Virus genome (UHGV): UHGV-1493261
From: a virus
Length of the DNA stretch: 64,000 nt
Direction: 5' to 3' (one strand)
Under the pieces are notes generated by a model, which was not told where the DNA came from, made no database searches, and saw only the letters and a list, made by a program, of their open reading frames with translations. Positions 52,501-55,490 of the stretch are shown one piece after another; within the stretch, counting starts at the first letter, position 1, and every line of letters begins with the position of its first letter. The translations under genes were made by a program, and so were the position numbers.

Positions 52501-52709
52501 TCGATGGGATGGGTTGAAAGACTACACGCTTGCACTGGTACTGCCTTATGGGAGAGCGCGTCAGGAGTCGAACCTGAAGTCGTAAGCGTAGAGAAAGCTA
52601 TTTGCATTTCACTATCCCCGCTCCGATTTTCTTAACTTCCTAAACACCCCGATTACGAGAGAGTCGACATGCACATCTTCTAACTCTTCAGGAAGTCACG
52701 CCCGTAATT

Positions 52710-52798
52710 TGGCGGAAGGTGAAGGATTCGAACCTTCGGGGGCTAAAAGCCCCACTCGATTAGCAGTCGAGTCCCTTAAACCTCTCGGGCAACCTTCC
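52710..52798 (-). tRNA. tRNA-Ser (anticodon GCT)
   Basis: Manual cloverleaf: acceptor GGAAGGT/ACCTTCC, anticodon loop CTGCTAA, long variable arm GGGGCTTTTAGCCCC, T-loop GGTTCGAATCC, encoded CCA. Confidence 0.7.
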
Positions 52799-53016
52799 AA
52801 TTTGGACGGGCTTCGCACCCGATTGAGCATTTGATCTGCCGTAGCCCAACTCCCCGCGCTTCACAGCGCCGATTGGTTAACTGGTGACCAGTGCCTTCTG
52901 GTTAGATCCCCTGGAACTTTACAGGCTTCGCGCCCAACCATTTCTGGAAGTTGAGGCATCGTTTCCGATGTGGAGTCCCCTCATTTTACACAGCTGGCTG
53001 CAACGCTTACCGTGTT

Positions 53017-53443: not shown

Positions 53444-53520
53444 TGGTGATCCTGATTGGGTTTGAACCAATGACCAATGAATTATGAGTTCACTGCTCTA
53501 ACCGACTGAGCTACAGGACC
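53444..53520 (-). tRNA. tRNA with CAT anticodon (elongator Met or Ile-lysidine type)
   Basis: Acceptor GGTCCTG/CAGGATC, canonical D-arm TAGCTCAGTCGGTTAGAGC, anticodon loop CTCATAA, T-arm ATTGG-TTCAAAC-CCAAT, CCA. Anticodon stem lacks initiator features. Confidence 0.7.
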
Positions 53521-53736
53521 AAATTATTGTGTGACCAACCAAGGACTGTCAACCCTTTATCCCGTTTGTGCATGATCGGTTCATGCAGGCCTCTTTGTGC
53601 TGCCTCACGGCATGCGCTTCTGTTGGTCATTGGCTTACACTGTGGCCTCACAACAGGCGTTTATTTTTCCAGGGCTTTCCACTTGCAAGTCTTGACCATA
53701 CAGGGATACGGGCTTGCAAGATCGGGTTGGACACAA

Positions 53737-53811
53737 CTTTGATGGCTCTGGTATTAAAGATCCCGCGTCACCCATAGACATGGTTTATAAATCCAGAGCC
53801 ATCAAAGTTGC
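53737..53811. repeat. 18-bp perfect inverted repeat around a ~39-nt AT-rich spacer
   Basis: CAACTTTGATGGCTCTGG (53737-53754) and its exact reverse complement CCAGAGCCATCAAAGTTG (53794-53811). Confidence 0.7.
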
Positions 53812-55490
53812 AACCAATGTCGTAACTCGCAGCTTCCATACAGAAGCAACTTGTCCTCTAACACTCGGACCAAACGAGGCTGGCTGGTTGATTCAGAGCC
53901 GCTGGTTGATTCAGCAAGCATGGGTTGATAGCCCGGCAACATAGAATCACCCAATGCTCTCTCAAGTTCATAAATCGAAGTGCCCTGACTCAACAGTATG
54001 GCCCAATATGCTGTTATCGTCCACCGGATTGGCCGCCCAATTTGTAGATCAACCTTTGGGTTTAAGATAAATTGCCAAGGCACTTCGATTTGTGTGCCCT
54101 TCACCTGCCAGGGATCAGGGCTGATGGCAAGACTTCGCTCACATCTTTCAAGATACTCGTGAGAATATCCTCAAAGATGTGGTGCCGTTTTAGGGAGTCG
54201 AACCCAAATGTTCGGCCAGCGCTGACCTTACATCCCATCTGACTTAGGCAACCCACCTCTGCTTACTCAGGAGCTTATCCCCTTTGGACAGTCAGATGTA
54301 ACGGCATTTTATTTAACAATTCATTCAACTGATAACTTCAGGGGACCACTCTCATCTCCCCACATTTCGACCGCCCGGGACGGTTTAGTGGTACGTCACT
54401 TGGTCTGTTACATGGTAGGAGCCGATTCTCCCTCGAATTACCTCTTGTTCGTATGCCTACAAACAATTTCACAGATTGCTGACAAGTTATCATGTGAATG
54501 AATTGTCATTGTATGCCCTGACTTATTAATCACATCTCAGGGCCGCGATGCGCCAGATTCTGTTACAGGGAACTGGAATACCCCGCTGACTTATAGGCTA
54601 TTACGCCGCCATCAGAACTTCGGAATCATTAGCAGTTATTTGCTTGGTCAGTTTCTAAAAACCCGCAAAGTCACGCACAACGAAAACGAAAACCTGTTTG
54701 AGTCCTAAACGTACCTGTCTTAGTCTCACAACGCTATGAGTGGCCAGGACTCAAACAGCTTGCCGTTCAGTAGGTTAACTATACTTTGTAACCCGTTATT
54801 GATAAAACTTTTTATTTTGTTGGCGAGGGTGTCACCATCGATTTACCGGAACTTACGCATCCGGCCTCGCCTGTTGGTGCTCCTTCGAATCCGGGAAGAT
54901 CAGTAGGAACTATGAATCAAGTTAATTCAACCAACAGGAACCTTGTTGCCCTTTGACGCAACATTATGAACCCTCTGTGAAGACTCATAATGTTGTCGGC
55001 GTGATGGAGATTAGCGCCCCCGACCTCCCCTTGTGTTGGTGTCGACTTGCCAACGGGGTGCTCTCTGATTCTGAGCTAATCACGCTACAACAGGGAGTTT
55101 CGTTCTCCGACGGTCAAGTGCGTCCACTGACACCATGCAAGGTGGATATTGACTTATGGAGCCGGAGTCCTCGTCCTAGGACTGTGCTTGGCCTCAGCCT
55201 TTACACCGCTGGTAGCCCGACTCTTTACACCATAAAATTTACTATACTACAGCCCAACTAATTTGAAAAGTCCTCTCCTCTTTGAGCTACACTGCCCACA
55301 GCAGTGCGGACGAACCTGAACTCAAAACCGGATGCGCCGAAGTGGGCGCCTGTTTACCGGACTGATCGGGTCGACCCAGGAGAGAGCAGGTAATCCCGAT
55401 CAGAAGGATGAGGAGTAACATCATGTAAAACATAGTGTTCCCTCCCTTCCATGCAAATAACTTTACTGCAATTATTTATTGAATAAAGCG

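Follow-up and report, generated by a model that had tools for sequence, protein, structure and literature searches.

A conserved, covarying tRNA-shaped RNA gene closes a tRNA operon in Ackermannviridae phages

The locus and the architecture of element A

A 64,000-nucleotide (nt) stretch of the viral genome UHGV-1493261, referred to throughout as the window, carries on its minus strand a cluster of tRNA genes followed by a 154-nt sequence that we call element A (52703-52550). Its limits, from G1 to a conserved UCCC tail, were set by regular-expression search and by alignment of 17 homologues from three Ackermannviridae genera, Agtrevirus, Kuttervirus and Taipeivirus. Element A is a conserved, covarying, tRNA-shaped RNA gene that closes a tRNA operon. 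Five tRNA genes precede it on the same strand, each found by both ARAGORN and Rfam: tRNA-Met (53520-53444), tRNA-Trp (53375-53300), tRNA-Asn (53291-53217), tRNA-Tyr (53100-53017) and tRNA-Ser(GCU) (52798-52710), the last lying directly upstream of element A. These tRNAs encode their CCA ends, as read from the sequence for Ser and Tyr and from a 3-nt offset between the ARAGORN and Rfam ends for all five.

The consensus structure of the whole of element A is a cloverleaf-like four-way junction in which long arms take the places of the D arm and the anticodon arm. Its ends form a seven-pair acceptor-like stem, 100% paired in 17/17 homologues, between GGGCGUG (52703-52697) and CGCGCUC (52560-52554); the two strands make five Watson-Crick and two G.U pairs across 136 intervening nucleotides, and the 3' strand abuts the T stem directly, as in tRNA. 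A single A separates the acceptor 5' strand from arm 1 (52695-52636, 60 nt), which occupies the D-arm position. Within arm 1, an invariant CUUCCU/AGGAAG stem (P2) encloses a covarying 7-base-pair (bp) stem (P3a) and a 4-bp stem with a UGCA loop (P3b), the latter within an invariant GUGCAUG block at the tip; a conserved single strand, AAUC-GG-GUU, forms the junction J3/2. In Agtrevirus copies, P3a shows a 2x2 mismatch or a slipped register. An A-rich single-stranded linker, UUAAGAAAA (52635-52627), unpaired in the consensus, leads to arm 2 (52626-52580, 47 nt) in the anticodon-arm position, which consists of a covarying 8-bp stem with a bulged A (P4), an internal loop and an essentially invariant hairpin, GAAA(U)GC-AAAUA-GCUUUC (P5), inside the invariant block GUGAAAUGCA. 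Two nucleotides further on lies the T arm (52577-52561), with its stem strands UCAGG (52577-52573) and CCUGA (52565-52561) closing the loop UUCGACU (52572-52566), which reads UUCGAYU in 17/17 homologues. The 3' tail, UCCC(A) (52553-52549), in which UCCC is invariant (block CUCUCCC) and the A is present in 16/17, differs from the canonical NCCA. Element A is unable to decode, as it lacks an anticodon loop and has an arm 2 roughly three times as long as an anticodon arm.

Element A is also embedded in a plausible transcription unit. Just upstream of tRNA-Met, a sigma-70-like promoter, TTGACA-18-AATAAT, was found on the minus strand at 53552-53523 (11/12 matches; a consensus match only), and 58 nt past element A the terminator scan found an intrinsic hairpin followed by a U tract (52492-52471), the only terminator-like site that it returned on the minus strand. 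Klebsiella phage May carries a terminator annotation on the corresponding hairpin, and the trailer, too, is conserved among relatives. We therefore presume from these signals that element A is the last cistron of a Met-Trp-Asn-Tyr-Ser operon, between predicted promoter and terminator. In all three genera it is the last gene before the terminator, despite a differing upstream gene: tRNA-Ser in Agtrevirus, a pseudo-tRNA or tRNA-Tyr in Kuttervirus, and tRNA-Gln in Taipeivirus. In Det7 and its relatives, a pseudo-tRNA annotated as 'tRNA-OTHER' (locus L002, 2608-2696) stands as a separate gene between tRNA-Ser and element A, and its candidacy as an element A homologue was rejected.

From the CCA of tRNA-Ser to G1, the window has a 6-nt spacer, AAUUAC (52709-52704, minus strand), the presumed RNase P leader. 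Relatives read AAUUAU|GGG (Taipeivirus) or AAU|GAG (Kuttervirus) at this point, with U at position -1 in most. Element A thus carries three features of the RNase P type, namely an A/U-rich leader, a 12-bp stack of acceptor plus T stem, and a 3' CC. The neighbouring proteins (a pyridoxal phosphate-dependent enzyme, a baseplate gp6-like protein and two open reading frames (ORFs) without a family) gave no RNA-related clue.

Standard finders are silent on this sequence. ARAGORN reported no tRNA or transfer-messenger RNA (tmRNA) across 52546-52706, and Rfam returned no family on element A, the tRNA model RF00005 and the tmRNA models included, either at gathering thresholds or at E<=10. An earlier note on this DNA had stated that a canonical cloverleaf fails here, and the two programs bear it out: neither turned up a conventional tRNA. 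A D arm and an anticodon arm with a 7-nt loop are absent at canonical spacing, and the 60-nt and 47-nt arms stand there instead. The same note had described a perfect minus-strand T arm, TCAGG/TTCGACT/CCTGA, followed by CGCGCTC, which we confirm at 52577-52554, and a complementary GGGCGTG far upstream, which lies at 52703-52697.

For a single sequence, such a complement carries little information. The exact T-loop motif GGTTCRANTCC occurs seven times in the window, in four of the tRNAs, in element A, in a second tRNA-like element (54194-54204) and once in coding sequence, and the T loop of tRNA-Met departs from it by one mismatch. When the window was scanned for T-loop-like sites, 9/37 had a perfect 7-mer complement within 60-260 nt (G.U allowed), most of these nine being clearly random. 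The distant acceptor complement alone could be chance and is not significant by itself. The minimum-free-energy fold of element A includes the acceptor and the T arm. The evidence that this pairing is real comes only through relatives, in which the pairs covary and the structure stands far above shuffled and slid controls.

Conservation and covariation in three genera

With element A as query, 212 phage records were matched, all from the three genera named above and with Salmonella, Escherichia, Klebsiella, Shigella and Enterobacter as hosts. Identity to element A is 90-96% within Agtrevirus and ~71-78% to Kuttervirus and Taipeivirus, and 0/212 records carry an RNA annotation over it. The tRNA region of the window itself is 98.6% identical to that of Salmonella phage vB_CECAV_050 (Agtrevirus) and ~93% identical to that of SenALZ1. 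The alignment of distinct sequences (7 Agtrevirus, 7 Kuttervirus and 3 Taipeivirus; 168 columns) contains 87 invariant positions.

Run on this alignment, RNAalifold returned 11 compensatory pairs and recovered the acceptor and the T arm as well as P2, P3 and P4. We then compared a curated seven-helix structure (43 pairs) with slid controls in which the 3' partners were shifted by 1-3 columns. The curated structure has 95.9% of cells paired, versus 41-48% in the slid controls, and 14 pairs altered on both sides, versus 0-3; none of 500 shuffles equalled the observed paired fraction or covariation score. Individual helices contribute unequally. Acceptor pair 4 is C-G in 7 and U-A in 10 of the 17 sequences, pairs 2 and 6 vary on one side only, and pair 3 is G-C in 17/17. 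The T stem is 100% paired with two pairs altered on both sides (A-U to G-C and U-A to C-G), and both-side changes were found in three pairs of P3a and one of P3b. In P4, 7/8 pairs are altered on both sides, and some of these changes distinguish Agtrevirus phages that share ~95% identity overall. This covariation establishes the long-range acceptor pairing that the earlier note had proposed. Its broader suggestion of a longer stable RNA with a tRNA-like 3' domain holds insofar as element A is conserved, covarying and long, and needs amending in that the likeness spans the whole molecule rather than just the 3' domain.

The same data bear on the idea, also raised earlier, that element A is a degenerate tRNA, a pseudogene drifting with insertions in its D and anticodon arms. 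A decayed gene could have kept the canonical acceptor stem and T arm; pseudo-tRNAs occur in neighbouring phages, such as the Det7 'tRNA-OTHER' with a possible 15-bp insertion, and the window has a sub-threshold tRNA match at 54998-55085. The inserted arms, however, are the most constrained parts of the molecule. The non-tRNA arms hold the longest invariant blocks (GACUUCCUG, GUGCAUG, AGGAAG and GUGAAAUGCA) together with compensatory changes, P3a, P3b and P4 stay paired through both-side changes in 11 pairs, and element A is retained in 212 genomes of three genera. Because the supposed insertions are so constrained, we regard decay as quite improbable and find the degenerate-tRNA reading unsupported.

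Two related candidates were judged on structural grounds. An intron-containing tRNA is unlikely, because there are two separate covarying expansions and no 3' anticodon-stem partner before the T arm, and removing one contiguous insert restores no cloverleaf with an anticodon. An attP-type tRNA 3' fragment was rejected on the covariation of the 5' acceptor strand with the 3' strand; the phages carrying element A, which we take to be virulent, add to the case against it.

Could the region instead encode a short protein, or the tRNA likeness be a coincidence? Perfect 7-mer complements of the acceptor are common at such distances, as noted above, and some records annotate a 'hypothetical protein' over the region. 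In the window, small ORFs overlap it at 52504-52635 (plus strand) and 52696-52830 (minus strand). Against coincidence stands covariation far above the controls. Against coding, the indels span 1-4 columns, are mostly 1 or 2 nt and are scattered over the alignment, while the GenBank coding-sequence (CDS) calls vary in strand and position among genomes and overlap tRNA genes (tRNA-Gln in one). The protein-coding reading was set aside on the evidence of the indels and the inconsistent CDS calls, and we give next to no credence to it or to chance resemblance. Short 'hypothetical protein' CDSs lie over element A in several GenBank records (L004, 1126-1377; L030, 339-452; L031, 393-482), which probably are artefacts of gene prediction over the unannotated RNA.

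The family appears confined to this phage group. We searched IMG/VR, JGI metagenomes and one genome per prokaryotic species with a pattern (GTGAAATGCA..GCTTT..GGTTCGA) that combines the T loop with the P5 hairpin. The pattern found only the same phages, including a 607-bp 'Flavobacterium' scaffold that is evidently phage DNA, apart from chance matches in coding DNA (L009, L016, L036 and L037) and one doubtful case (L013). No match to the pattern was found in 5,426 complete E. coli genomes. A covariance model built from the element A family, R1, scores the window copy at 177.3 bits and detected no orthologue in the Limestonevirus locus of Dickeya phage Coodle (9.2 bits even with filters off). 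Limestonevirus nevertheless keeps the conserved trailer and terminator.

Comparison with T4 rnaC and other tRNA-like RNAs

The earlier note had likened element A to the small stable RNAs of the T4 tRNA cluster. In the T4 annotation, rnaD and rnaC end the cluster, rnaC (species 1 RNA or RNA C, 139 nt) following tRNA-Arg and rnaD. We aligned T4 rnaC and three of its diverged relatives, those of Kanagawavirus, Karamvirus and an unclassified Enterobacter phage, and obtained from these four sequences a consensus of 44 pairs, 15 of them compensatory. The order of parts is acceptor, an arm of ~70 nt, an 8-nt A/U-rich linker, a 26-nt hairpin, one nucleotide, T arm, acceptor 3' strand and a U. In the 7-bp rnaC acceptor, CGRUUCG/CGUUYCG, one pair switches from A-U to G-C and two U.U mismatches are conserved; the T arm reads CCNGG/UUCGAAU/CCNGG.

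Element A resembles this RNA in several respects. Both lie in a tRNA cluster on the same strand as the tRNAs, and rnaC is the last gene of the cluster in T4. In both, a 7-bp acceptor-like stem joins the two ends and borders directly on a 5-bp T stem, whose loop is UUCGAAU in rnaC; a long first arm (~60-70 nt), an 8-9-nt A-rich linker and a second hairpin arm follow one another in the same order, and a U follows the acceptor 3' strand. The junction with the preceding gene is also alike: CCA-AAUUAY precedes element A in Agtrevirus (window 52704-52712) and in Taipeivirus (L003, ~1204-1212), and the T4 rnaD-rnaC junction reads ACCAAAUUAU|CGAUUCG (L008, ~1545-1556). This common junction suggests, at the level of sequence, a processing signal shared by unrelated phage families.

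The two RNAs also differ. The rnaC acceptor has its two U.U mismatches and rnaC lacks a C-rich tail, and arm 2 is a 47-nt structure with an internal loop in element A, whereas in rnaC it is a 10-bp hairpin with an invariant CGUCAA loop. The BLAST match sets are disjoint, with Straboviridae for rnaC and Ackermannviridae for element A, and Rfam holds no family for T4 rnaC or rnaD. Element A thus shares its layout and setting with T4 rnaC, with no specific sequence homology detectable. The comparison drawn earlier is sound for helix order and genomic setting and does not extend to sequence homology with rnaC. The element A family is new; the kind of RNA, exemplified by T4 species 1 RNA, is already known.

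The species 2 RNA of T4 (rnaD) is likewise a small RNA of unknown role co-encoded with phage tRNAs. Unlike element A, it has no T arm, and it is closer to the 218-nt Tyr-Ser spacer of the window, described below. In Enterobacter phage SonariX, the 3' 95 nt of the rnaC homologue are annotated as 'tRNA-Met' (L045, 304-398). That call uses an internal acceptor register, as R1 and the Rfam tRNA-Sec model did in T4, and the register is not conserved in EnC15.

Canonical tRNA (RF00005) shares with element A the acceptor stem, the T arm with its loop sequence, the four-way junction and the operon position. Element A is also likely to use the tRNA maturation machinery. It departs from tRNA in its length of 154 nt, its UCCC(A) tail and its lack of an anticodon. 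Among other phage and bacterial RNAs, stable RNAs of unknown role have been reported in the tRNA region of phage T5. GOLLD and ROOL are structured non-coding RNAs often found beside phage tRNA genes and are several-fold larger than element A. The bacterial Y-RNA-like YrlA contains a tRNA-like module, its ends forming a Ro-binding stem and not an acceptor stem.

As in tmRNA, element A is a long RNA whose ends form an acceptor stem beside a T arm. tmRNA is an RNase P substrate (review PMC11143913). A role linked to translation, whether as a tmRNA-like molecule whose tRNA-like domain adjoins a short coding or tag segment or as an aminoacylated donor, would account for the resemblance of the acceptor/T-arm domain to that of tmRNA, and P3b contains a Shine-Dalgarno-like AAGG followed by AUG. 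Yet neither ARAGORN nor any Rfam tmRNA family scored on element A, and acceptor pair 3 is an invariant G-C and not the G.U (G3.U70) needed for alanine charging. The AUG-led frames run to 5, 4 and 18 codons in the three genera, so that no ORF is conserved. Element A also has no pseudoknots and a different topology, a four-way junction in place of the tmRNA P2 helix, and its tail is UCCC(A). These features make a tmRNA-like role very improbable. As a tag or mini-ORF, the P3b AUG frames were rejected on their lengths, and a tmRNA-like 'GCA AAU...' frame, found only in the window lineage, was likewise rejected.

Proposed maturation and role, and further RNAs in the cluster

R1 gave a weak full-length match at 54309-54175 (16.3 bits), which, together with its homologues, defines a second tRNA-shaped RNA, element B (54305-54180, minus strand, 126 nt). 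Its acceptor is GCCGUUA/AAACGGC, arm 1 (~63 nt) is closed by a 9-bp stem, arm 2 is ~30 nt, the T loop is UUCGACU, and the molecule ends in a discriminator A with an encoded CCA. Identity is 82-99% across 199 Ackermannviridae records, and 40/40 of the records listed leave element B unannotated. Four compensatory pairs mark its most diverged copy, in MK-13; they fall in the acceptor and in both arms, and the comparison lent no support to the inner part of arm 1. The 10-mer CCUGAGUAAG is common to element B (window 54253-54262) and T4 rnaD (L008), a sharing expected by chance at ~1-2% for two RNAs of ~125 nt; the local predicted structures differ, and it may be coincidence.

Taken together, these results indicate that element A is probably a structured non-coding tRNA-shaped RNA of ~150-155 nt that is matured from a tRNA precursor and acts in trans via its invariant arms. 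We propose the following route. Transcription would start at the promoter upstream of tRNA-Met, with element A as the last cistron of the Met-Trp-Asn-Tyr-Ser precursor. RNase P would recognise the acceptor/T-arm minihelix and the 3' UCC and cleave 5' of G52703, and the trailer of ~60-80 nt with its terminator would be removed by endo- and exonucleases that stall at the invariant C run. The resulting UCC(C/A) end may be repaired by the CCA-adding enzyme, for example to UCCA, and the T loop is probably modified as in tRNA. With recognition of the acceptor/T arm, stalled trimming and T-loop modification all assigned to it, the tRNA-like module would supply processing and stability, and element A would accumulate as a stable RNA. 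Function would then reside in the invariant non-tRNA surfaces, that is, in P2, the GUGCAUG loop, the GG strand of J3/2 (a possible D-loop analogue docking on the T loop) and the P5 hairpin. The most likely role of these surfaces is to bind, in trans, a protein or an RNA of either host or phage, which would make element A a tRNA mimic or decoy.

Element A might instead work in cis, as a processing or stability module that offers a defined last substrate for RNase P and exonucleases and shields tRNA-Ser and the rest of the precursor from 3'-to-5' decay, the excised RNA itself being functionless. Its constant place before the terminator, whichever tRNA precedes, fits such a role, as does the retention of trailer and terminator even in Limestonevirus, which lacks element A. 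A shield, however, has no need for 87 invariant positions concentrated in loops and two non-tRNA arms, nor does protection require a 154-nt four-way junction. In addition, T4-type rnaC homologues lie mid-cluster in some phages, and the second RNA of the same design in the window, element B, sits outside the annotated tRNA cluster. We consider a purely cis-acting module doubtful.

Several observations weigh against a matured, trans-acting RNA. The single-sequence folding energy of element A is no better than that of shuffles (z = 0.02) and so is not evidence for it. P2 and P5 never vary, so the case for these two helices is one of conservation only. The phylogenetic depth of the alignment is modest and, with only three genera, the cell counts overstate the number of independent compensatory events. 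In place of NCCA, the 3' tail reads UCCC(A). On T4 rnaC, R1 reached 22.7 bits, in a wrong, internal and non-conserved acceptor register, while an unrelated tRNA-Gly scored 23.7. Our literature search found no paper on tRNA-like RNAs in Ackermannviridae, whether on their expression, end-mapping or processing. Finally, the roles of T4 RNA C and RNA D are unknown (PMC3014915, PMC9697503, PMC12685909). With no role on record for the T4 RNA to draw on, a trans-acting or decoy function is, in this proposal, pure inference. In favour of the proposal, RNA C was detected by Northern blot in T4-infected cells, late in infection (PMC9697503).

A wider proposal, which we advance as a tentative possibility, is that element A, element B and T4 RNA C belong to a widespread, unrecognised class of host-matured, trans-acting phage tRNA mimics. 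Against host defences aimed at tRNA, for example anticodon nucleases and tRNA-cleaving toxins, such mimics could be decoys or inhibitors; or they could sequester tRNA-binding factors, among them RNase P, the CCA-adding enzyme, modification enzymes or, via the A-rich linker, Hfq. A role as decoy or sponge for host factors directed at tRNA would be attractive; our literature search returned nothing on phage tRNA-like decoys. If the class is real, it would give the species 1 and species 2 RNAs of T4 a role.

Element A constitutes an RNA family with strong comparative support in >200 genomes. Its design is that of T4 RNA C, an RNA that has gone without an attributed function since the 1970s. This second independent lineage of the architecture provides comparative leverage on what such RNAs do, and one that is testable in a second phage system. 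Both lineages have the acceptor/T minihelix, two arms with an A-rich linker, and a U behind the acceptor; what is lineage-specific is the sequence of the loops. In biocontrol of Salmonella and E. coli, Ackermannviridae (for instance ViI, Det7, CBA120 and related phages) rank among the most widely used phages, and their genomes are annotated as if the element A region were empty or held tiny ORFs. The R1 model can be used for annotating the family and for submission to Rfam.

Other parts of the cluster also look like RNA genes. The 218-nt spacer between tRNA-Tyr and tRNA-Ser (53016-52799, minus strand) is ~90% conserved in Kuttervirus and Taipeivirus, above element A, and pieces of it are 97% identical in Limestonevirus. 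It contains several hairpins and ends, directly before the next tRNA, in CGGGU-GNGAA-GCCCG followed by UCCA-AAUU. It is probably another processed RNA, reminiscent of T4 rnaD. In the unrelated clusters of two Stephanstirmvirinae phages (L033, 2971-2994; L034, 3780-3803), a T-arm-like hairpin, AGGGG/UGCGACU/CCUUA, follows the last tRNA, and the UGCGA of its loop recalls the UGCGAAG loop at the end of the window's Tyr-Ser spacer. A T-loop-like end motif may, judging from these sequences, recur in phage tRNA operons.

Another long tRNA-like RNA, distinct from element A and ~130 nt in length, stands immediately downstream of tRNA-Met in Limestonevirus (Dickeya phage Coodle; L032, 2122-2250), with the acceptor GUCGGGU/GCCCGAC and the T arm UAGGG/UUUGAAU/CCCUC. 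It shares AGUGAA and AUAGCUUU with P5 of element A, yet reaches only the 9.2 bits with R1 given above.

Upstream of tRNA-Met, ~2 kb of the minus strand (53520-55490) hold no ORF of >100 codons. Besides element B, this region contains a near-perfect hairpin of ~22 bp at 53721-53818, weak tmRNA-like matches at 54549-54740 and, at 54805-54778, a promoter-like site with a 13-bp hairpin and a U-rich tract after it (~54750-54680). The sub-threshold match at 54998-55085 (23.2 bits) resembles a tRNA whose anticodon region carries an insertion and whose T loop is non-canonical.

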